This document shows, in pieces, positions 9,540-26,578 of a stretch of DNA of 64,000 nt; position 1 is the stretch's first letter, and the number at the start of each line of letters is the position of its first letter. The translations under genes were made by a program, and so were the position numbers. Below the pieces are notes generated by a model, which had not been told where the DNA came from, did no database searches, and saw nothing but the letters and a program-made list of their open reading frames with translations. This stretch comes from an uncultured Alphaproteobacteria bacterium (GTDB taxonomy: Bacteria; Pseudomonadota; Alphaproteobacteria; Sphingomonadales; Sphingomonadaceae): positions 85,288 to 149,287 of the forward strand of contig CAWHQE010000001.1 of NCBI GenBank assembly GCA_963831485.1, written 5' to 3'.

Positions 9540-11221
9540 TGATCGACGATCTCGGCCCGACCTTCGCCACCCGAGGAGCGCAGATGTTCCTGCGTTTCAC
9601 GGACGATGAGCTTGCACGGCTTGCCCGGTTCGGTGAGCCGCGAAGCTACAAGTCTGGTGACATGCTAGCGCGGAGGGGTGAGGCGGGCCCCGGATTGATG
9701 CTGATCCTGTCCGGTCGGGTCGATGCTATTCGACCGGACGGAGGTGCGGGTTCCCACATCGTCACCCACGAGCGTGGCAATTTCATGGGAGAGCTCGCTC
9801 AGCTTTCCGGGCGGCCGTATTTGGTCGATGAAAAGGCGCTCACGGACGTGGAAGCCGTCGCGATCCCGCCGGATCGGTTGCGGGCGCTGCTCATCGCCGA
9901 AGCAGACCTCGGCGAGCGACTGATGCGTGCACTGATCCTCCGGCGCGTCGGGTTGATCGAAGCACGCGCCGGACCGATCGTCATTGGCGATGAGCACGAC
10001 GCAGACGTACTGAGGCTGACAAACTTCCTGCGCCGCAACGGGCATCCGTATGAAAGTCTCGATCCCGGAAGCGATAGCTGTGCGCGAACATTGGTCGAGC
10101 GCTTCAACGTCGCTGCCGAGGAGCTTCCGATCGTTCTCTGCCCGGGCGGCCAGCTACTTCGCAACCCGACCGAGTCCCAGCTCGCGCGATGCGTCGGTTT
10201 GCTCGGTCCGATCGACAGTGACCGGCTTTACGATGTCGTGGTGATTGGCGCAGGACCGTCGGGTCTAGCAACATCGGTGTACGCAGGATCCGAAGGCCTT
10301 TCGGTCTTGACGATCGACTGCCGCTCCTTCGGCGGACAGGCGGGCGCATCGGCTCGCATCGAAAACTATCTCGGCTTTCCCACCGGTATCTCGGGCATGG
10401 CGTTGATGGGCCGCGCGTTCAGCCAGGCGCAGAAGTTTGGTGTGGACGTCGCAATCCCGGATGAAGCGGTGAACCTGGAGTGCGGCAATGACCCTTGTCA
10501 CATCCAGCTCGCTACCGGCGAACGCGTCCAGGCCCTCGCTGTCGTGATTGCGACCGGGGCACGCTACCGGCGGCTCGGTGTCGAACGGCTCGACGAGTTC
10601 GAAGGCGCGTCGGTCCATTACTGGGCCTCGCCGCTCGAAGCGGACCTTTGCGCAAACAGTGACGTGGCATTGGTCGGCGGCGGCAATTCCGCGGGACAGG
10701 CGACCGTTTACCTTGCAGGCAAGGCGCGACGAGTAACGATGATGGCTCGGCGTCCCCTCAGCGAAACCATGTCGCAATATCTGATCGAACGCATTGAGGC
10801 GCTTCCAAATGTCGATGTCGTGATCGGCTGCGAGGTGTCGGCGCTCGAGGGCTCGGACGGACAGCTGCAGGCGATCAACTGCCGCAATCGCCAAACGGGT
10901 AACGTGACCCGCCGAGAGGTGCGCTACCTATTCTCCTTTATCGGCGCGGAGCCGAACACCGACTGGCTTCGAACCTCGGGCATCAGCCTGGACAAGCGCG
11001 GGTTCGTGCTCGTGGGCGAAGAAGCGTGCGATGACCGCCTGCCGCTCGAAACCAGCCGCAAGGGTGTGTTCGCCGTGGGCGACGTACGCTCGACCTCGGT
11101 TAAGCGCGTGGCGGCGTCGGTTGGCGATGGTGCTCAGGTGGTGGCCTCCATCCATGCCTATCTGGCGCGGGAGCGCGAGGAACCTGCTCTCGTCGCCCAT
11201 CCGATCCCGGCGACGGCCTGA
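9539..11221 (+). CDS. Cyclic-nucleotide-binding domain fused to a thioredoxin-reductase-like FAD oxidoreductase
   Basis: N-terminal cNMP fold (GNFMGELAQL), GAGPSG FAD motif, GGGNSAG NAD(P) motif, AVGDVR; ATG overlaps the upstream stop. Confidence 0.85.
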   Translation: MIDDLGPTFATRGAQMFLRFTDDELARLARFGEPRSYKSGDMLARRGEAGPGLMLILSGRVDAIRPDGGAGSHIVTHERGNFMGELAQLSGRPYLVDEKALTDVEAVAIPPDRLRALLIAEADLGERLMRALILRRVGLIEARAGPIVIGDEHDADVLRLTNFLRRNGHPYESLDPGSDSCARTLVERFNVAAEELPIVLCPGGQLLRNPTESQLARCVGLLGPIDSDRLYDVVVIGAGPSGLATSVYAGSEGLSVLTIDCRSFGGQAGASARIENYLGFPTGISGMALMGRAFSQAQKFGVDVAIPDEAVNLECGNDPCHIQLATGERVQALAVVIATGARYRRLGVERLDEFEGASVHYWASPLEADLCANSDVALVGGGNSAGQATVYLAGKARRVTMMARRPLSETMSQYLIERIEALPNVDVVIGCEVSALEGSDGQLQAINCRNRQTGNVTRREVRYLFSFIGAEPNTDWLRTSGISLDKRGFVLVGEEACDDRLPLETSRKGVFAVGDVRSTSVKRVAASVGDGAQVVASIHAYLAREREEPALVAHPIPATA

Positions 11222-13682: not shown

Positions 13683-13966
13683 ACTTCACGTCGATCATCG
13701 CCATCTATTTCCTGTTCTTCTGCTTCAGCGCCTTCGTGCTGTTGCCGTTCGGCGTGCGGACGACCGAGGAGATCGGCGAGAAGAAAATACCCGGCCAGGC
13801 GGAAAGCGCGCCGCACCGCTTCGATCTCAAACGCCATCTATCGAGCGCAGCGATCGTCGCTGCCATCCTGTTCGGACTCTACTACCTGAATTACGTCAAC
13901 GGCTGGATCACAGCCAACGATCTCGACTTCTACAACCCGCCGCTCAACCAGCAGTCGAACAGCTAA
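13679..13966 (+). CDS. DUF1467-like small membrane protein
   Basis: LLPFGVRT...PGQAESAP signature; ATG 13679 overlaps rnj stop. Confidence 0.8.
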   Translation: MNFTSIIAIYFLFFCFSAFVLLPFGVRTTEEIGEKKIPGQAESAPHRFDLKRHLSSAAIVAAILFGLYYLNYVNGWITANDLDFYNPPLNQQSNS

Positions 13967-16271
13967 CGGCGCTTTTCGACCACCTGCGCGAGCGCGGCGT
14001 AAAGCTTGCCCATATCCGACGACATCAATGTGACCGCGATCATCCCGCCGTCGCGTTCGGCGAGGACACGGCGCAGCATGGCTTCGAAATCATGGACGTA
14101 GCGGTTCACCGAGGACTGGAACTCAGGCTCGCTTTCGTAATGTGATTTGATCGACCGCGTTTCGCTGGCGTCCATCAGACGTACGGCGCGCCTGGTGAAG
14201 ACGCCGCGGTTGCCCTTCAGATAGGCGCCCCACGCTTTGTCGTCGATTTCGTCGGACAGGATCTTGCCAACGTCGATCGACGCGGAATGCATCGAGTTCG
14301 ATCAGCAGCGAAACACGGCGGGCGAAAGCCTCGCTGTCCTTCTCGCGCTGCTCGTCGCGGGTCGCTTCGATATGCTGTTCGAGCGCCGACGCGCTCTGGC
14401 CGAGCGACAGCACCTGCTGAGTCAGACGGTCCGATGCGGCACGCGCCGATTCGACCGCGCGGGCCGCGACCGTTTCCACCTCCCGCAGTCGCTCTTCGAT
14501 CTCCTCACGGATCACGCGCTCCAAAGCTGAGCGAGTCTCGTCGGACAACTTCACGACGCTCGATGGGATGACTGCCTCAATCGCTTCGCGGGCGCGCTCG
14601 GCGGCGTGGGCGGCCGCGTCCTTCACATGGACCAGCGCGGTGACGAGCGCCGGCGCCGTTTCGGCGCTGAGACTGGCCGCTTCGCGTTCGACCTCCGAGA
14701 GCATCGACGAAAGTTCGGTGAGCTTGCTCTGCGCGTTGCCGACGCCCTCATCGACGGTGGCGAGGAGGGCGGTGAAGCGATTCTGTTGCTCGCCGATGGT
14801 CTCTTCTGTCTCCGACAGGCGCTGACCCGCCTCGACGGTCGCTTCGCGAATGCGCTCGATTTCGGGGCGCACCGAAGTCGCCGCTTCGGACAACCGGTCA
14901 GCGCCGCCCTGGGCCTCGCCGATGGCCGTCCCGAGGTTTTCGCGGATTTCGTTGGTCAGCCGGTCGATGCTCTCGCTGAGGGTCGCGGTCCGTTCCACAA
15001 TCGAGCCAATCGCCGATTCCTGCGAGATCGCCTGAGAAGCGAGCGTGTCGAGTTCGCTGCGCGCGCGGCTGAGCAATTCGATGAACTTGTTCGCACGCTG
15101 GTCGCCATTTGAAGCGAGCTCCGTGAACCTCTGGTCGATCGCTGCCAGGCCGCGATCGATTTCCGCGATCATCAGGTGCGAAGCGCGGTCCTGCTCAGCG
15201 ACTCGTGCCGACAGGTTTTCGAGCGAACTGCTCGCGTGAGCGACATTGGCGGCCAGCGATTCCGCGGCGTCCATTCCTGCTCGGCCAAGACCGGCAGACG
15301 CCTGTTCGACGAGCGCAGCGACCGCCGCGGACTGAACGTCGATTCCGCCGCGGATCTCCTCGAGCGTCGCTGAGGTCCGCTCAAGCAGCGTCTCAAGAGT
15401 GGAGGACATCCCCGCATGCGCTTCACCGAGCCGAGCCGTGGCGGTGGTTCCGGCAATATCGATTTCAGCAAGTCGAGTGGCGAGCCGGTCCGTCGCCTCG
15501 GCAATCAGCTGGTCCGCTTCGCGGGTCCGTTCGGTGAGGTGACCGACATAATTGCCGAACACCTCGGCCTTCTCGACGGATTCGCTACCGAGCGCGCGGA
15601 TTTGCTCAGCCAGCGCGCGCGTTGTCTCTTCGGCGCTCGGCAAATCCTCGAGTAGGACGGCGACATCATTTCGTGCCGATTTCGGCCGCGCGGTCAAGCG
15701 CTTCGCCGTGCCGCTTCAGCCTCTCGCTGCTGTTGTCGAACTGCTGGGTGATCCCGCCAAGCTTTCCGGTCGCATCATCGCCGAGCTGCATCAGATTCTG
15801 CGCCATCATCGTCAGCTCGGAGCGACTCTCGCTGATCCGCTGAGACAGGACTTCGAGCAAAGCCTCGAGCGACTGAGCTTCGCCACGCATAGCGATGACG
15901 GAGCGAGTGAAGCGCTCTGCCTCCTTACGGCGGGTGCGACCGAAGATCAGCCAGAGAAGTGCGAAAAGCGCGAGCGGCCCCGCCGCGATCGCCAGCCATT
16001 GGGCGACGATCGGCGAGGTAAGCGGTTGCCCGGAGAGGGTGCGTCCGGCAGACCAGGCCGAATAACCAAGCCACACCGCCGACAGAGCGATCAACGCGAT
16101 CGCAAGAACCTGCCGCCCACCTGCTCCGAGATCGGCGGACAATTCCTCAGTAGGCTGGAGCCACTGCTCTTCTTCCATCGAACCGTCGGGAAGGACGTCC
16201 GCGCTCGTCAATTCGAGGGGCTCGAGGGAATCGGTCAACGCATGCTCAGCACGCTTGGGGATCGGTGTCAT
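13963..16271 (-). CDS. About 768-aa membrane-anchored coiled-coil protein (TipN/GPR-like), split by two +1 indels near 15681 and 14296
   Basis: Three consecutive ORFs join into one frame after removing one base at each site (DRAAE-SARNDV; LLIE-SMHSASIDV). Two N-terminal TM helices, long helical repeats, C-terminal VNRYVHDFEAML...SSDMGKLY domain. Confidence 0.75.
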
Positions 16272-16354
16272 CGCAATACAGACATTACCACCTTTGAAGC
16301 CTCGCGAAAGCGGTTAGAGAAGGGCTTCGAGGCGGGGAGGGAACGGATAAGCGA

Positions 16355-17536
16355 ATGACGGTCGGCGCGCTGATCGGGGCCTATCAGGAAGATGACAGTG
16401 GCGGTCTTCGGGCACTGCTTCCGCTGGCTGGAAGGACCCTGCTCGAATATCAGGTCCGCTGCGCCGCCGCTGCAGGAACCGCGCCGGTCGTGATCGTCGT
16501 CGAGCGAGTACCTCAGGCGCTCCAGGATGCGTTCGAACGGCTTCGCCAGGATGGCGTTGCGGTCTTTGCGGCGAGCGACGTCAGCGAAGCCCTGAGCCGC
16601 TTCGAAGCAGGCTCGATGATCCTGCTTGTAGGTGACGGCATTGCGCCGCCGGCGGACTTAGTGGCCGCATTGGCGAACGAACCGGAACCAGCCGTCGCGA
16701 CCGTACCAGACGATGCCGCGCACCAATCGTTCGAACGCATCGACGCCGAATCGAGGTGGGCCGGGGTGGCGCTGGTCGATTCGCATTTGCTCGGCTCAAC
16801 GGCCGCCATGCTTGGAGATTGGGACCTTCAATCCACCCTTTTGCGGCGGACACTTCAGGAAGGAGCGCTTCGTCTCCCGGCGAACGACGTCGGCGGCGAA
16901 CCCCTCATCGCCGAGACAGGCGAAGACCTGTACGACTTCCAGCGCAAGCTCGTCGTCAGCTCGCGCGGCGCCCGTCCGGACTGGGTCAGCCGCTATCTTC
17001 TTCCACCAATCGAAGAGCTTGCGACCGAGCGGCTAATGGAGAGCGGAGTCAGGCCGCCGTGGCTGATGTGGGCAGCGCTCGGCCTTACGCTTGGCGGAGC
17101 GCTCTGCTTCACCCGCGGATGGCTCGGCGCCGGGCTCGGCTTGCTTATCGCATCAATGCCGCTCGATCTCATTGCCAACCGGCTTGCTGGCCTGCGCCTG
17201 AAACCTCTGCCGGTCCGAATGCTCAGCCGGCTGGCCCTGTGGCCCGCCGCGGGAATCGCCCTCCTCGCACTCGGCTGGTGGGAAATGGGCCATGTCAGCG
17301 GCTGGGGTGCACTCGTCGGCGCGATCGGGGCGGGCGCGTTCGCCGAAGCGGCGCGAATCGAGCGATCGTCGATGCAGGACAGCGAGCCTTGGTTGATCTC
17401 ACGCCGAAGCGCGATCGTTCTTGCCGTTCCCTTTGCTCTCGCGGGCGCCTGGACAAGCTATCTTGTGGTGCTTTCGGTTTACGCGCTGGTTTCCTTCTTC
17501 ATTGTCCAGCATGTGCGCCATCAGTCATCAAGTTGA
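16355..17536 (+). CDS. Nucleotidyltransferase-like N-terminal domain plus multi-TM C-terminal domain, function unknown
   Basis: RALLPLAGRTLLEYQV resembles sugar-nucleotidyltransferase N-termini; several hydrophobic segments in the C-terminal half. Confidence 0.6.
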   Translation: MTVGALIGAYQEDDSGGLRALLPLAGRTLLEYQVRCAAAAGTAPVVIVVERVPQALQDAFERLRQDGVAVFAASDVSEALSRFEAGSMILLVGDGIAPPADLVAALANEPEPAVATVPDDAAHQSFERIDAESRWAGVALVDSHLLGSTAAMLGDWDLQSTLLRRTLQEGALRLPANDVGGEPLIAETGEDLYDFQRKLVVSSRGARPDWVSRYLLPPIEELATERLMESGVRPPWLMWAALGLTLGGALCFTRGWLGAGLGLLIASMPLDLIANRLAGLRLKPLPVRMLSRLALWPAAGIALLALGWWEMGHVSGWGALVGAIGAGAFAEAARIERSSMQDSEPWLISRRSAIVLAVPFALAGAWTSYLVVLSVYALVSFFIVQHVRHQSSS

Positions 17537-17548
17537 CGCGAAGTTAAC
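17533..17548 (+). promoter_or_regulatory. Near-consensus CtrA box TTGA-N7-TTAAC
   Basis: TTGA cgcgaag TTAAC, one mismatch to TTAA-N7-TTAAC, 25 nt upstream of the DUF2336-like gene; the first half overlaps a stop codon. Confidence 0.45.
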
Positions 17549-17573
17549 GGAAATCGGATAACGCAGTCGCGTA

Positions 17574-18614
17574 ATGATGCCTGAAGAGTGGCCGATTATC
17601 GCTTCGGCAGAGCCGAATGCGCCCGCGCGCGTCGCGGGCCGTGGGCGCCTGTCCACGGTCCGGGCCGATTTTTTCCTCAATCCCGCCGAGCGCCTGACGG
17701 AACAGGAACGGGCGCTGATGACTGCCATGCTGCACTGCCTTGTGGGGGATATCAGCGGCGAGATCCGTGCTGCGCTGCCGGCCGGTTGGGCGGGCGCTAA
17801 TGACGATGAGGCAGCAACCGTCAATTCCTTGACCAGGGCGGGCCTGCTCGATGACGCTGAGCTGATGGCGCTACTCCTGCGCCGCGCCGACGAAGAGCGG
17901 ATTGGGAGCGCTGCCCGAGCACGGAGTGGTCGCCGCGAGGCGCGCGCTGTCCAGGGACTCGTCAGCTACCACGACTCGACGGTGTCTGCCGCGGCAATGG
18001 CGCTGATCCTTGCGCGCGGCAGGCGCCGCGACCGCTTCGGTCAATGCCTGATCGCTTTCGACGATCTCTCGACCGTGTCATCGCAGAGGCTAGTCCACGC
18101 CGTCGCTGCAGCTTCGCGCCGCGATGTCGCCTCCGGATATGGCGCCGCTGCGGCCGATGCCGAGCTTTCAGCCGCGGCTTCACGGCTCCTCGACAAGCAT
18201 GATCAGGGGCGTGGCGTCGAAGCGCTTACTGCTGCGCTTGTTGCGGTTCTCGACGAAGCCGGCGGACTATCTGACGAACTACTTCTCGCCTGCGCTCAGG
18301 AGGGCGAAGTTGGATTCCTCGCTCAGGTGCTCGCCCGAAGGGCCGGCATCAGGGGCACCGTTGCGATGGACGAGCTTCTCGCCGGCGAGCCGGGTCGCTT
18401 GATGGCGCTGCTTCGCCTCGCCGGCTTTTCGCGCGAGCTCTGCGCTGGCCTGCTGGCAAGCCTCGGCGACCTTTTGGGAATCGATGATCCGGGATCTGCG
18501 ATCGGGCATTTCGATGCCATGACCGCCGAGGAGATTGGCGCAACGGCCAGCTGGCTCTCGGCGACCGCTTACTACCGCGCTGCGCTCGAAGCGTTGGGAA
18601 GCCGCAATGGCTAG
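17574..18614 (+). CDS. DUF2336-like all-helical protein
   Basis: 346-aa Ala/Leu-rich helical ORF with DFFLNPAERLTEQERAL and LLLRRADEER segments, which I recall from the sphingomonad DUF2336 family. Confidence 0.55.
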   Translation: MMPEEWPIIASAEPNAPARVAGRGRLSTVRADFFLNPAERLTEQERALMTAMLHCLVGDISGEIRAALPAGWAGANDDEAATVNSLTRAGLLDDAELMALLLRRADEERIGSAARARSGRREARAVQGLVSYHDSTVSAAAMALILARGRRRDRFGQCLIAFDDLSTVSSQRLVHAVAAASRRDVASGYGAAAADAELSAAASRLLDKHDQGRGVEALTAALVAVLDEAGGLSDELLLACAQEGEVGFLAQVLARRAGIRGTVAMDELLAGEPGRLMALLRLAGFSRELCAGLLASLGDLLGIDDPGSAIGHFDAMTAEEIGATASWLSATAYYRAALEALGSRNG

Positions 18615-19935
18615 TGCTCCATCCGAACCCCGCGCGGTCGCCGGACGGCTCGACAGCTTCGGGCGGCTCATCGCGGCCGACCCCGAGCTTGAATCGCTCC
18701 AGCGGGAAGCTGGTTCGGAAGTCGGCCAGATGCTTGCTTTGCCGCAGGTCGCCGCAGTGGCCCAGCTGGCTCGTAAGCTTGGCACTTCTGTCGGGCGCCC
18801 AGCTGTCGCTGCCTCGGCTGACAACGACATCGAAATTTGGGTCAATGCAACGCCTGAAGGCGACGAGATCGTCTTGTCGCTTGAGGGCTGGACGGTACGT
18901 CCTGCGGCCGGTCCCCGTCTTGCAACGATCCTCGGCGGCGGCAGTGAAGCCGCCAGCGCAGCCGCGCAGAACGAATGGGCGACCGACGAGGAGCTGCGGA
19001 TCATCTCCATCTCATCGGAATTTGCTGAGGTGCTCGGAATCGATGTCGCAGAGGCTGCCGGTGCACCGCTCACGCGCATCGTCCGCCTCGAAGAGGATGC
19101 AAGCGGCGAAATGCCGCTGATCAACGCGCTGGCGGGCAGGCGCAACTTTTCGGGCCAACGCGGACGCAGCCGATCGAACGAAGCCAGCATCGTGCTCAGC
19201 GGCGAAGTCGTGACGGCGGCCGATGGCTCCTTTGCCGGCTTCCGCGGGACAGCCGCAAGCGAGACGGACGCTAGCGCGCAGGCAATCACCCGTTCGCCGG
19301 GCTTCGACCAGGCGTTGGACGAATTGCTGCGCTCCCCGATCGATCGGATCATCGAGAGCGCTGAAAAGATCGTCGCCCGCTCGGACGGGCCGCTGCGCGG
19401 CGATTATGCAAATTACGGCAATGACATCGCGTCTGCTGCCCGGCATCTGCTCTCCGTACTCCGCGCGATGAGCGAAGACCCCACCCAGGTTCACGGCCTC
19501 GTCGATCTTGCGGCGCTCGCGTCCGAAGCCGTCATCATGCTCGAATCCTCGGCTGAAGATCGCGGCGTGCATATCCAGATCGATCGTTCCGAACCGCTTC
19601 GTGCTCGCGGACAGGAACGCGCGGTCATCCAGATCCTCGTGAACCTGATCGTGAACGCGATCCGCTATTCGCCCGAAGGCGCCACGGTCCGGATCAGCTT
19701 CGACAGGGTCGCGGGGGCAGCGTCGGTTATCGTTGGCGACGAAGGTCCGGGTATCGCCGCTGGTGACGAGCAGCGCATTTTCGAGCGTTTCGAGCGAGCC
19801 CAGGCCAAGGAAGCCGGCACCGGCCTCGGCCTCGCGATCTCGCGGCGGCTCGCCCGTTCGATGGGTGGCGATGTGACGCTCGACAGCGCGCCGGGCGAAG
19901 GCGCGCGCTTCACGCTCACTCTTCCGGCTGCCTAG
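18607..19935 (+). CDS. Sensor histidine kinase-like protein lacking the phospho-accepting His
   Basis: Intact N, G1, F and G2 boxes ([30 protein letters not shown]); H box reads DELLRSPI. Confidence 0.88.
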
Positions 19936-22718: not shown

Positions 22719-23048
22719 TTGGAAGGCGCGGATTTTCGCGGCTCCGGGGGGTTGGAAAAGCTCCTCAAGGCGGAGCATGCCCAGCTTCCGCCATGGGTGG
22801 CATCGGCGGGATTGCTGCCTGGTTCGGGCTCGATGAGCCGGCGCTGGGGAAGGCGTTCCTCTGCCTTGCCGGCAGGCCGGCGTCGGTTGCCGAACTTCTT
22901 GCAAATTCCCCTCGCAGACGGTTCCGATCTTCTTGCTTTTCGCGCTCATGGAATGGTCGAGGAACATGCGTGTGAAGCTCTTCGGGGTCGTCGCCAGCCT
23001 CATCCTCGTGAACAGCTCGATGATCGACCGAGGTCTCGAGGTCGCTAA
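22719..23048 (+). pseudogene. comEC: Degenerate N-terminal remnant of a ComEC/Rec2 competence protein gene
   Basis: Fragments LEKLLKAEHAQLPPW and GIAAWFGLDEPALGKAFLCLA in different frames resemble the ComEC N-terminus; from recall, comEC lies between gltX and lexA in related genomes. Confidence 0.55.
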
Positions 23049-23064
23049 GGCGGGCTAAGCGAGT

Positions 23065-23715
23065 CTAGTATCGCCGGATGAGCCCGGCGAGGCGGCCCTG
23101 GATGCGGACTCGATCCTCTTCGTAGCGCTGAGGCTCGTAGCGACTGTTCGCGGGGTCCAGCCTGACCATCCGGCCCTCACGGCGATAAGTCTTCAGCGTG
23201 GCTTCCTCGTCGTCGATCAGCGCGACCACAATCTCGCCGTCGCGGGCCGAATCCACTTTCCGGATCAGCGCGAAATCGCCGTCGAGAATGCCTTCATCGA
23301 CCATCGAATCGCCTGAAACCTCGAGTGCGTAATGCTCACCGGGGCCGAGCAGGGCGGCAGGAACGGCGAAGCTTTCGGTGCCCTGCAGCGCCTCGATCGG
23401 CGTGCCGGCGGCGATTCTTCCGTGGAGCGGAATCTCCATCGTATCGTTGGCGACGACAGCAGGCCGGATAGGGGTCAGGATCGCCGGCCTCGGACCATTC
23501 GTCTCTGGCAGCCTCAGGATCTCAAGCGCCCGGGCGCGATTGGGGAGGCGGCGGATGAAACCGCGCTCTTCCAAGGCGGAAATCAGGCGATGGACGCCCG
23601 ACTTGGACTTGAGGTCCAGCGCCTCGCGCATCTCGTCGAAGCTGGGGCTGACCCCATCCTCCCTCAGCCGGCCGTCGATGAAAAGCAGTAGTTCGCGTTG
23701 CTTGGCGGTGAGCAT
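23065..23715 (-). CDS. lexA: SOS repressor LexA
   Basis: PSFDEM...[11 protein letters not shown], cleavage site IAAG, catalytic GDSM and ATLK. Confidence 0.97.
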
Positions 23716-23742
23716 TCGTATGTCCCCGTCATCCCCTGTGTG

Positions 23743-23785
23743 GAACGAACGGAGAACGTGTAGGCAACAAACGCGCTCAGGTCAA
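23743..23785 (-). promoter_or_regulatory. lexA promoter with alphaproteobacterial SOS box
   Basis: GAAC-gaacgga-GAAC at 23743-23757 abuts a minus-strand TTGACC-N17-TACACG promoter. Confidence 0.85.
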
Positions 23786-23795
23786 GCCGTGCGAA

Positions 23796-25730
23796 TCAGC
23801 CCCCGCTGTTGACCATGCGGGACCTGAAGGACTGAATCGCCGCATCGTTGCGCTTGACGCCGAGCTCCTTTCGAATCGCGGCAAGGAACTCCTGTCCGTA
23901 ATCCTGTGAGATGGACTGCTGGAGCTCGTTCTGCATCTGACCGATCAGCGCGGGCTGCGCCATTGCATTGCCCGCCATGATCTTGTCGACCCTGATGATG
24001 AAAAAGCCGCGTCCCTGCGGATCCGGGAACATGCGGCTTTTGCCTTCGCCGAGCGTGAAAAGCATTTTCAGCGGCGGAGGTACGGGGCCCTGCGCCATTG
24101 CGAGCTGAATCCTGCGCGCCGCCAGCGGATGAACCGGCGGAAGCGCTGAGCCGGCTTCCTTCATCGCCTGGGCGAAGGGCGTTCCGTGCTCGACCTTTGC
24201 TTCAATCTGGGCCGCCGCCTGCTTGGCACGGTCGAGCGCCCTCTGGTCGATCCAGTCCTTCGCAACCTGGTCATGCACGCTCGCGAACGGAGCGGGTGCC
24301 GCCGGTACAACCTGTCCTGGCGACACCAGCGCGTAACCCTGATCGTTCGGAAGGGAGACGATCTCGGGTGGATCGTTCGCCTCGAGGTCGAAACCGGTCT
24401 TTAGCGCCGGCGCAAGCTCCGGCGGCAATTTGAAATTGGAATCGGCGCGCGACGTGCCATTTGCGACGATGAGCGGCGTCGTCGTGACCGATAGTTTCGT
24501 CTGAGCGATCGCCTCAGCGAAATTGTTGCCGTTGTCGATCGCGTCCTGGACCTTGTCCACGATGTCCTCGATCGCACCCTTGCGCTTGTCGGCATTTATC
24601 TTTGTGGCAATTTCAGCCTTCGCCTGGTCGAGCGTCTTGCCGCCGATCGTCTTGACCGCGTCGACCTTTGCCACGGCCCAGCCGAAGGTCGACTTCACGG
24701 GGCCGACGACCGCTCCCGATGGTGCTGCGAAGACGGCCCCCGCCGCGTCCTTGCCGACGACGGACGCATAAGCGTCGGTCGATTGATCCTTCAGAGAGGA
24801 GACCGCCGCACTGGCGCCCGCGGCTGCCGCGATCGTAGCGCCGGCCTTTGCCTTGGCGACGATCGCGTATGCAGTCGCCTGGTCCTGGACCAGAGCCTGG
24901 GTGACGTCGCGCGTCTCCTTCGATGCGTAGTCAGCCTTGTGCGTGTTGTAATAGTTGGTGATTTCCTGGTCGGAGGCGGTCACGCCCGCGACCTGTTCCG
25001 GCCCGATGCGGGCAATTCGCAATGCGCGCTGCTCCGGAACCATGTAGCGGCCGCGATTGGCCGAATAATATTGCTGCAGCTCGGCATCGGTCGGGTTCAG
25101 ACCAGCGCGGAACGCCTCGAGCGGTATGGCCGCAACCTGTCCCTCCCGCGATTCGAGCATCATCGCTGCGAAGGGCGTCGCCATGCCAGCCGAGATGCGG
25201 GCATTCGCCGCCACTGGGGTCAGCAAGTAACGTTCAAGAAGGCCACTGGTGAGGACCTCGCGGATCTGGTCGTCGGTCAGGCGTTGCTGAGCGAGAAACG
25301 CCTGGTACGCCTGCTGGCTGAATTGCCCGCCAGGACCCTTGGTTTGCGGCAACTGCGCGATCTCCGCGTCGACGAGGCGCTTCGAAAGCGGGAAGTGGAA
25401 CTTTTGCGAGAAGGCAAGGATCGCCTTTTCGTTGATCAGCTCGTCGAGCAGGGTATCGAGATCGCCGATGATACTGGAGTAATCCGCTTCTGGCTTTTGC
25501 AGCCGAATCTGCTGGAGCCGGCGCTGCATCGCATCGCTCGTCTCCTGCTCGGTTACCTCTTCGCTTCCGACCTTCGCCAGCGTCGAGCGGGTCATGCCGA
25601 AACCGAGATTACCCGAGCCGAAATTGGTGACGCCCGTCGAGGCGAAGCCAATCAGGATGAGAATGAAGAAGATTGCGACGATCGCGGTGCCGACCTTGGT
25701 CTTTTGCAACGCGCGGAGTGAGGAGAGCAT
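23796..25730 (-). CDS. ppiD: PpiD-like periplasmic folding chaperone (SurA N-terminal and rotamase domains)
   Basis: N-terminal TM helix, 644 aa, SGPVKSTFGWAV-like rotamase segment (VGPVKSTFGWAV); divergent from tpiA. Confidence 0.8.
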   Translation of the reverse strand: MLSSLRALQKTKVGTAIVAIFFILILIGFASTGVTNFGSGNLGFGMTRSTLAKVGSEEVTEQETSDAMQRRLQQIRLQKPEADYSSIIGDLDTLLDELINEKAILAFSQKFHFPLSKRLVDAEIAQLPQTKGPGGQFSQQAYQAFLAQQRLTDDQIREVLTSGLLERYLLTPVAANARISAGMATPFAAMMLESREGQVAAIPLEAFRAGLNPTDAELQQYYSANRGRYMVPEQRALRIARIGPEQVAGVTASDQEITNYYNTHKADYASKETRDVTQALVQDQATAYAIVAKAKAGATIAAAAGASAAVSSLKDQSTDAYASVVGKDAAGAVFAAPSGAVVGPVKSTFGWAVAKVDAVKTIGGKTLDQAKAEIATKINADKRKGAIEDIVDKVQDAIDNGNNFAEAIAQTKLSVTTTPLIVANGTSRADSNFKLPPELAPALKTGFDLEANDPPEIVSLPNDQGYALVSPGQVVPAAPAPFASVHDQVAKDWIDQRALDRAKQAAAQIEAKVEHGTPFAQAMKEAGSALPPVHPLAARRIQLAMAQGPVPPPLKMLFTLGEGKSRMFPDPQGRGFFIIRVDKIMAGNAMAQPALIGQMQNELQQSISQDYGQEFLAAIRKELGVKRNDAAIQSFRSRMVNSGG

Positions 25731-25840
25731 GAGGTTCCTAAGGCGAGAAAGGCCAGTTAGGTCGCCGCTTTAGGGGCGAGCCTTGCAGGCATCAAGGCGC
25801 GGCAGCTAGGGGCGCTTCAACTGGGGAGTAACAACCGCAC

Positions 25841-26578
25841 ATGAGAAAACTCGTCGCCGGCAACTGGAAGATGCATGGTCTGTCATCGGACATCGGCGAA
25901 ATCGAAGCGATCGCCGAGGCATCCCTCCACTTCCCCGCGGTAGACGTCGCCTTGTGCGTCCCTGCGATCCTAATCGAGCGCGCAGCGCGGGCCGTTCCGG
26001 GCTTCGCGATCGGGGGGCAGGATGTCCACCAAGCGGACAAGGGAGCACACACAGGCTGTACCTCGGCGCAAATGCTGGTCGATGCCGGCGCGGTTCTGAC
26101 CATCGTCGGTCATTCCGAACGCCGCGAGGCACAGCGCGAGAGCGACGCGGAGATCAAGGCAAAGGCCGAGGCTGCGCTCGGCTGCTGCCTCGGCGTCATT
26201 CTCTGCGTCGGCGAAATCCTCGAAGTGCGAGAGGAGGGCGGGGCCGTGGAAACAGTCGTTTCTCAGCTCGACGGATCACTGCCTGATTCTACGGAAGCAA
26301 GGCTGGCGATTGCCTACGAGCCGGTCTGGGCGATCGGCACCGGCAAGATCCCGACCACTGCGGATATTGGCGAAATGCATGCGGCGATCCGTCGGCGCCT
26401 CGTCGAGCGCTATGGCGAGGAAGGTTCCGACATCCGTATCCTCTATGGCGGCTCCGTGAAAGCATCCAATGCGGCCGAGATATTTGCCGTTGTAGATGTC
26501 GACGGTGCGCTCGTCGGCGGTGCGAGCCTCAAGGCTGCGGATTTCATGCCGATTGTCGCAGCGGCCGCTGCGATCTGA
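25841..26578 (+). CDS. tpiA: Triosephosphate isomerase
   Basis: AGNWKM, GHSERR, AYEPVWAIGTG and LVGGASL motifs. Confidence 0.98.
   Translation: MRKLVAGNWKMHGLSSDIGEIEAIAEASLHFPAVDVALCVPAILIERAARAVPGFAIGGQDVHQADKGAHTGCTSAQMLVDAGAVLTIVGHSERREAQRESDAEIKAKAEAALGCCLGVILCVGEILEVREEGGAVETVVSQLDGSLPDSTEARLAIAYEPVWAIGTGKIPTTADIGEMHAAIRRRLVERYGEEGSDIRILYGGSVKASNAAEIFAVVDVDGALVGGASLKAADFMPIVAAAAAI

Follow-up and report, generated by a model that had tools for sequence, protein, structure and literature searches.

Do the four adjacent genes at positions 13963-19935 of a sphingomonad genome fragment constitute one undescribed cell-pole module, or is a smaller operon embedded among long-standing neighbours? 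The fragment, termed the window below, is a stretch of 64,000 nucleotides on contig CAWHQE010000001.1 of assembly GCA_963831485.1, from an uncultured member of the Sphingomonadaceae; its source is a soil Sphingomicrobium genome, a metagenome-assembled genome (MAG) of 20 contigs that is 91% complete. The initial annotation of the window had proposed the four-gene module: a gene for a pole-scaffold-like protein, divergent from three co-oriented genes that encode a degenerate enzyme fusion, a DUF2336-like protein and a kinase lacking the phospho-acceptor histidine. Gene order and strands proved to be as described when the open reading frames (ORFs) were listed and scanned against Pfam and NCBIfam profiles (Table 1). 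The module itself was sustained in part: the DUF2336-kinase operon stood, the link to the scaffold gene stood within the window's family and not outside it, and the enzyme fusion fell away. The best-supported core is most likely a translationally coupled and, by prediction, leaderless operon of DUF2336 and pseudokinase genes behind a CtrA-type box, whose kinase would signal by binding. The explanation as a whole, in which two gene units were joined, the pseudokinase acts through binding and the promoter is of the CtrA type, is one that we favour with moderate confidence.

Close relatives of the source genome carry the name Sphingomicrobium sp.; among them are the isolates Sphingomonas segetis YJ09, S. 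hankyongi SE220 and Sphingomonas sp. URHD0057. Within this genus, 80 loci served for synteny and the scaffold ORF, 78 for the promoter box, 63 Sphingomicrobium species for the kinase residues and 60 loci for alignment of the region between the scaffold and fusion genes. Within the family, the kinase acceptor position and the box were followed in 29 genera and the scaffold-kinase linkage in 23. Beyond it, 12 genomes from other Sphingomonadales families were used for the DUF2336-kinase pair, 12 loci from other families for the box, and 121 alphaproteobacterial genomes for the C-terminal domain of the scaffold.

The DUF2336 and kinase genes overlap by 8 nt, as first annotated, with the kinase ATG at 18607 and the DUF2336 stop codon (TAG) at 18612-18614. 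All 12 genomes from other Sphingomonadales families have a DUF2336 gene immediately 5' of, and on the same strand as, a gene for a dual-PAS HisKA kinase, and the pair recurs in two further alphaproteobacterial families (genomes G088 and G117); the kinases of these other families retain the His. The best match of the window kinase in each other-family genome was the kinase neighbouring DUF2336. In the reverse search the best match was another, canonical kinase, which is the outcome expected of a pseudokinase that evolves fast. A translationally coupled and deeply conserved operon is supported by these comparisons of sequence and gene order. In genome G026, a single stop-free ORF of 805 aa (locus L025, 6995-9409, minus strand) comprises DUF2336, one PAS, HisKA and HATPase_c. 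This fused protein was not found in the protein database, where the region of residues 30-400 returned four long DUF2336 proteins without kinase domains.

In terms of its family, the DUF2336 protein passes the PF10098 model (45.6 bits against a cutoff of 34.6), so the domain assignment of the initial annotation stood. Its link of the domain to the polar Caulobacter protein SpbR did not extend to equivalence: on the SpbR model NF052659 the window protein scores 25.4 bits, against a curated cutoff of 400. Several DUF2336 paralogues per genome are found in about half of the Alphaproteobacteria, and two types are distinguished on NF052659, an SpbR type (360-400 bits, from partial sequences) and a kinase-linked type (146-199 bits). 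A profile built from the DUF2336 proteins of the window's genus scored kinase-linked proteins at 95-114 bits and those of the SpbR type at 17-30 bits; the window protein is thus the diverged orthologue of the kinase-linked paralogue. No SpbR-type copy was found in the window's genome. The AlphaFold2 model of the protein is all-alpha (pTM 0.83), and no fold match to it was obtained in the PDB (best E 0.5). In genomes G027, G025, G029 and many of family f8, a second DUF2336 paralogue, 28-36% identical, lies 3-5 kb from the kinase-linked one on the opposite strand, with the kinase gene bracketed between the two. At loci that have no DUF2336 gene (L129 in G011, L179, L181, L183, L185 and L197), the kinase gene, which is shortened in G011, directly follows the fusion-like gene.

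The initial annotation had named conservation of the neighbourhood across sphingomonads as the check on the wider module. Within the family the neighbourhood is largely kept: the scaffold gene lies 3-5.5 kb from the kinase gene, and divergent from it, in 19 of the 23 genera, and also in G146. Elsewhere the scaffold gene and the DUF2336-kinase pair lie apart, at distances of 60 kb to 1 Mb in all other families, and four of the 23 genera of the family itself have the scaffold and kinase genes separated. These exceptions are what would be expected if DUF2336 and pseudokinase formed a stand-alone pair, with the scaffold gene and the dead fusion as long-lived neighbours in a quiet housekeeping stretch (rnj-like ... 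gltA-gltX). The rnj-like, gltA and gltX flanks are syntenic in 80 of 80 genus loci, exactly as the four genes are, so synteny at the level of the genus proves nothing for the module; gltA is convergent with the kinase gene across the family, and the fusion is almost without homologues elsewhere. The stand-alone pair accounts less well for the persistence of the linkage in 19 genera although kinase identity drops to 33-49%, and for the recurrence of a related arrangement in several unrelated families, where an SpbR-type DUF2336 paralogue independently flanks the scaffold orthologue. At least six genomes of other families (G021, G030, G025, G027, G095 and G067) have the paralogue at a distance of 23 bp to 5 kb from the scaffold orthologue, and three more (G019, G026 and G048) have it similarly close by coordinates, which indicates a real connection between the DUF2336 family and the scaffold. 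We regard the stand-alone pair as a possible explanation, though one that is on balance rather unlikely. The wider module has two lines of support, the linkage at the level of the family and the independent association of SpbR paralogue and scaffold in other families.

The SpbR-type genes near the scaffold orthologue (L134 10750-11865, L137 7598-8704, L140 3539-4633, L133 16075-17199, L135 4229-5329 and L141 9156-10226) are often convergent with it, and their genomes span several alphaproteobacterial families. The scaffold gene of other Sphingomonadales has beside it a divergent cluster that encodes a receiver-domain protein of 184 aa and two HPt-like proteins of 169 and 126 aa, for example at L133 6163-7693 (minus strand; G021) and also at L134, L136 and L137. 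No counterpart of this cluster of a response regulator and two HPt proteins was found in the window's genome, which does encode a homologue of PopZ.

The motif TTGA-N7-TTAAC, noted earlier upstream of the DUF2336 gene, is real and conserved. It reads TTGACGCGAAGTTAAC, has one mismatch to the consensus TTAA-N7-TTAAC, and is the sole match in the window, where 0.07 would be expected from shuffled sequences. The stop codon of the upstream fusion gene lies inside the box, and the first half of the box doubles as a TTGAC -35 element. Within the genus, where the consensus is AGTTGACscgAAGTTAACngAAATCgGATAA, exact TTGAC-N6-TTAAC occurs in 73 of 78 loci; it lies 39-41 nt 5' of the ATG, and a Shine-Dalgarno sequence is absent. 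The -10-like element GGATAAC lies 11 nt before the DUF2336 ATG, and other genera have GCTA at the same position. From the box and -10-like element so close to the ATG, and from the absent Shine-Dalgarno sequence at these loci, we infer a leaderless or near-leaderless operon mRNA.

Across the family, the 1.5 kb upstream of the kinase gene was scanned in the 29 genera (42 kb, 65% GC) for plus-strand TTAA-N7-TTAAC with at most one mismatch. The scan returned 30 hits, covering 29 of 29 loci, against an estimate from base composition of ~0.02 hits per locus; spacings of N4, N5, N6, N8, N9 and N10 gave 0, 0, 7, 1, 0 and 0 hits, respectively. The hit is always placed just 5' of the gene in the DUF2336 slot, or, at loci without that gene, just 5' of the kinase gene. 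The TTAAC half is invariant; the 5' half-site takes several forms (TTAG, CTAA, ATAA, TTTA, TTGA). Several hits read TTAACCAT, the known CtrA 8-mer of Caulobacter. GCTA comes 8-10 nt after the hit, and the distance from box to start codon is usually 38-40 nt. In five family loci without a DUF2336 gene, the box is found 48-361 nt before the predicted start of the kinase gene. At the loci from other families, a box occurs within 300 bp in 9 of 12; other spacings reach 1-4 loci, and none of 500 shuffles reaches 9. The box is a strong phylogenetic footprint of a candidate CtrA site and, since the -35 region is a CtrA-type direct repeat, the operon probably belongs to the CtrA regulon. A ctrA gene is present in the window's genome.

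The same element could instead be a sigma-70-type promoter core (TTGAC ... GATAA / GCTA) combined with an operator for another regulator, given that TTGAC is the plain sigma-70 -35 hexamer and that the 5' half-site is variable across the family. A census of the window's genome gave 4 sites for TTAA-N7-TTAAC, 1 for the N6 and 5 for the N8 spacing, that is, no enrichment of the full motif, which leaves comparative footprinting to carry the case for the box. In addition, the region upstream of ctrA itself (C10:50242-50641) has TTAA-N6-TTAAC, not N7, in the form TTAAGGGCGCTTAAC, together with isolated TTAAC half-sites. Yet TTAAC is invariant at exactly 11 bp after a TTAA-like half-site, in a combination that often reads TTAACCAT, and it falls in the spacer between -35 and -10, which is unconstrained in a plain promoter; the enrichment specific to N7 also extends to other families whose promoter sequences are unrelated. 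A promoter core with a different operator is considered unlikely. Elsewhere in the genome, at C19:512936-512951, a perfect palindromic TTAAGAGTTATTTAAC lies in intergenic DNA 5' of a LuxR-type gene.

The kinase encoded by the second gene of the operon is composed, in the AlphaFold prediction, of two PAS domains (aa 10-100 and 121-218), a DHp domain (232-289) and a CA domain (297-441). HATPase_c is detected by Pfam and no match to HisKA is obtained. When the segment MSHELRTPLNAII was aligned to the 13-residue H-box segment of canonical DUF2336-linked kinases from other families, the canonical MSHELRTP corresponded to LDELLRSP, which places Glu239 in the phospho-His column and Leu in the next, where the canonical residue is Glu or Asp. 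Assignment of the acceptor column to Asp was rejected on the same alignment, in which the Asp occupies His-1. Within the genus, the acceptor position holds Glu in most species and otherwise Asp, Gln or Gly, followed by Leu, Val, Ala or Met. In the 29 other genera of the family, the residues are K, N, E, A, R, Q, T, G or P, with H in two, so the position is unconstrained. The N, G1, F and G2 boxes (N346, D378/G380/G382, F392/F395 and G404-L409) are invariant in the 63 Sphingomicrobium species, as are many residues of the DHp and N-terminal part of the kinase. The structure model is matched by Foldseek to PAS-kinases that include DivL (4Q20, over DHp-CA, E 2.6e-14; phmmer 56 bits).

A genuine, conserved His-less pseudokinase, as the initial annotation had claimed, is supported by an acceptor position that is free to vary while the ATP-binding boxes are invariant. 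The suggestion that the protein is still an enzyme, which phosphorylates a non-canonical acceptor (itself, DUF2336 or another protein) or acts as a dedicated ATPase, would suit the invariant boxes, which suggest that nucleotide binding is under selection, but it is very improbable in view of the free variation at the acceptor position, the hydrophobic residue in place of the His+1 acid required for catalysis and the absence of a known alternative acceptor near the ATP lid, the invariant His280 being conserved in canonical relatives as well. Only one genus of the family, G204 (L202 3033-6791), was found to carry the canonical His pair (MSHELRTP); there the pair is distant from the scaffold and adjoins a flagellin/hook-associated-like gene. 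Placement of the canonical relatives in the PleC, DivJ or PdhS families found no support, their scores (150-175 bits, against cutoffs of 1000-2000) being no better than those on TorS or BarA.

The scaffold gene of the window is read as three ORFs of 201, 524 and 109 aa, separated by single-base insertions at ~14297 and ~15680. The gene forms a single ORF of 780-820 aa in six relatives and also in the 80 genus loci, apart from some of the long-read MAGs. Across a conserved 13 kb, five indels distinguish the window from a 94%-identical long-read MAG (L029), and all five fall inside GANTC, the CcrM methylation motif, with GA(N+1)TC in one assembly. They are located at window positions 9727, 14297, 14449, 15680 and 19544, the additional base being in one assembly or the other. 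Because the indels fall in this motif, we read the frameshifts as systematic long-read basecalling errors in a gene that would be truly intact, with a product of ~768 aa, and the alternative of a real pseudogene was rejected on the same grounds. Errors of this kind call for equal caution with, and a re-check of, apparent pseudogenes elsewhere in the assembly. Other long-read MAGs of this genus also have scattered frameshifts, in their rnj-like, gltA, gltX and kinase genes. Similarity to the closest relative, conserved over the 9.5-22.7 kb block, collapses downstream of gltX at ~22800-26400, with dense indels and substitutions.

The scaffold protein has two N-terminal transmembrane (TM) helices, a coiled coil of ~600 aa and a conserved C-terminal domain of ~200 aa. 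The hydrophobic stretches are at ~aa 54-73 and 88-111, and the two-TM N-terminus is kept in homologues. The C-terminal domain was found in 51 of the 121 alphaproteobacterial genomes, once per genome, where it invariably closes an ORF of 750-2418 aa. Pfam and NCBIfam scans of the scaffold proteins gave generic coiled-coil matches only. On PF01442 (cutoff 90 bits), a homologue of 1903 aa passes with 95.2 bits and the G027 orthologue reaches 62.5 bits; the proteins of the window and its genus had no match in the Pfam scan. By its predicted architecture, compared with GPR-sized proteins and with the published description of GPR, the protein belongs to a GPR/RgsE-like family. In the published account (PMC8262873), GPR has a pair of N-terminal TM helices, an extended alpha-helical, apolipoprotein-like stretch in the cytoplasm, and a C-terminus that matters for function. 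Upstream of the scaffold gene, the signal for CtrA-type boxes is weak (3 of 10 loci). The intergenic region between the scaffold and fusion genes contains, in the 60 aligned loci, the genus-conserved block CAGTTTACCATCTTTGA...GCGAAAGCGrTTAGAGAGG and a ribosome-binding site for the fusion gene, GGGGAGGG; the sister genus G146 carries TTGAAGCAGTTTTAAC in this region.

The fusion gene encodes an N-terminal MobA-like nucleotidyltransferase domain, followed by a membrane domain. A homologue in G026, 28% identical, retains PF01066 and the DxxDGxxAR motif and matches NF041135, the model for bifunctional CTP:inositol-1-phosphate cytidylyltransferase / CDP-inositol phosphotransferase (IPCT/DIPPS), which relates the C-terminal membrane domain to the CDP-alcohol phosphotransferases. 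In the window protein both signatures are lost, in agreement with its earlier description as degenerate: GxGxR is absent and the segment reads GAYQEDDSGG, DxxDGxxAR is absent and the segment reads DLIANRLAG, and PF01066 has no match. The sequence is well conserved across the genus despite the replaced signatures, and homologues outside the family are few. The protein is a degenerate IPCT/DIPPS-like pseudoenzyme, predicted to be catalytically dead.

Table 1. Coordinates of the genes and sequence elements of the locus within the window.
Feature	Position	Strand	Basis or remark
GPR/RgsE-like scaffold gene	13963-16271	-	coiled coil; single ORF in relatives
NTP_transf_3 + multi-TM fusion gene (IPCT/DIPPS-like)	16355-17536	+	PF12804, 33.5 bits
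CtrA-type box TTGA-N7-TTAAC	17533-17548	+	motif match and footprint
-10-like element GGATAAC	17556-17562	+	genus conservation profile
DUF2336 gene, 346 aa	17574-18614	+	PF10098, 45.6 bits
Pseudo-histidine kinase gene, 442 aa	18607-19935	+	HATPase_c 94.4 bits; no HisKA match
Glu239 codon (kinase acceptor position)	19321-19323	+	alignment with canonical kinases
+1 insertion, GAGTTC vs GAGTC in relatives (scaffold frameshift 2, ~14297)	14293-14298	.	alignment
+1 insertion, GATTTC vs GATTC in relatives (scaffold frameshift 1, ~15680)	15677-15682	.	alignment
Scaffold/fusion divergent intergenic region, 83 bp	16272-16354	.	60 loci aligned

Besides the equal synteny of the flanks, the distances outside the family, the genome census and the plain -35 hexamer, several further points weigh against the preferred reading of two joined units with a binding pseudokinase. 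The DUF2336 gene was lost and the kinase kept in one species of the genus (G011) and in several genera of the family, so the DUF2336 protein is dispensable for the kinase. The 805-aa DUF2336-kinase ORF, a possible natural fusion, is a single unconfirmed case. In one other family, the box is kept in only 10 of 30 close relatives. The enzyme fusion is tied to the other three genes by position alone, with no independent link. Finally, homology of the scaffold to Atu1348 and RgsE was judged through GPR-sized proteins that share its C-terminal domain.

The mechanism that we propose begins with two units, which would have been joined in the ancestor of the window's sphingomonad family. One is a membrane-anchored, coiled-coil GPR/RgsE-like scaffold, divergent from a dead IPCT/DIPPS-like membrane protein; the other is an ancient alphaproteobacterial operon of DUF2336, as a kinase-linked paralogue of SpbR, and a soluble dual-PAS histidine kinase. 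In the family, the kinase lost its phospho-acceptor His, replaced by Glu239 in the window, together with the catalytic acid next to it, and kept its ATP-binding boxes and DHp surface. This combination of losses with invariant boxes and a conserved surface makes it most likely that the kinase signals by nucleotide-dependent binding of a partner, either a response regulator or another kinase, and not by phosphotransfer, in a manner that resembles DivL. The DUF2336 protein could act as adaptor or tether for the kinase, possibly to the neighbouring scaffold, and transcription of the operon would start at a promoter with a CtrA-type direct repeat as its -35 region and yield a leaderless mRNA.

A broader proposal would make DUF2336 proteins the adaptors that dock signalling enzymes onto a GPR-like scaffold across the Alphaproteobacteria, in two arrangements that most orders would have, the SpbR type encoded beside the scaffold gene and the other in an operon with a PAS kinase. 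These would have merged in the window's family into one CtrA-controlled locus, with the kinase as a phosphotransfer-dead, ATP-binding switch. Such a locus would be an undescribed cell-cycle or polarity module whose only means of action is binding. We offer this extension tentatively and consider it doubtful.

The operon is a candidate for cell-cycle or polarity signalling through binding. Pseudo-histidine kinases are rare; DivL, the one known best, is central to alphaproteobacterial cell-cycle control. The window kinase is a second case, independently evolved, conserved across a whole sphingomonad family and placed behind a CtrA-type box. It is also coupled to a member of the DUF2336/SpbR family and adjoins a relative of a growth-pole-ring scaffold. 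To our knowledge, DUF2336/SpbR is the only protein family so far linked to PopZ-dependent pole development. Literature searches on DUF2336, and on SpbR with PopZ, returned almost nothing, and its recurrent linkage both to a PAS kinase and to a GPR-like scaffold provides a first functional context for the domain. The three cultured relatives named above make the idea directly testable.

Each component can be set beside a known system. The scaffold resembles GPR (Atu1348 of Agrobacterium tumefaciens) and RgsE of Sinorhizobium meliloti in its two N-terminal TM helices, helical region and C-terminus, and has both its N-terminal TM module and its C-terminal domain in common with alphaproteobacterial proteins of 1900-2400 aa, one of which passes PF01442. 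It differs in size (~768 aa, against 2115 aa for GPR), and PF01442 is sub-threshold in the sphingomonad orthologues; moreover, we know of no sphingomonad that grows from one pole. The fusion has the domain order of IPCT/DIPPS, a nucleotidyltransferase followed by a CDP-alcohol phosphotransferase membrane domain, but lacks GxGxR and DxxDGxxAR, and PF01066 goes undetected. With SpbR (CC2323 of Caulobacter crescentus, NF052659), the DUF2336 protein has the helical family in common, whereas it is the kinase-linked paralogue and scores 25.4 bits on the SpbR model. SpbR itself is a polar-cue-dependent protein that is delivered to ClpXP by RcdA (bioRxiv 10.1101/2020.06.12.148478; Wang & Bowman 2019, cited in PMC12700997).

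In comparison with the CtrA-dependent promoters of Caulobacter, which carry TTAA-N7-TTAAC or TTAACCAT over the -35 region and GCTANAWC at -10, the promoter of the operon has the same half-site spacing and the same overlap with -35, sister genera have TTAACCAT and GCTA, and the start codon is near enough for a leaderless mRNA. It departs from them in the 5' half-site, TTGA in the window, and in the unenriched motif of the window's genome. The closest parallel for the kinase is DivL of Caulobacter crescentus, which signals by binding (DivK~P/CckA). Both it (PDB 4Q20) and the window kinase are of the HisKA type, with PAS domains and without the phospho-acceptor His. The two are not orthologous, however, as in other families the relatives of the window kinase are ordinary kinases that contain the His and are encoded in a pair with DUF2336. 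The acceptor position is Tyr in DivL and Glu, or variable, in the window kinase, which is soluble, with two PAS domains in 442 aa and strictly conserved ATP-binding boxes.

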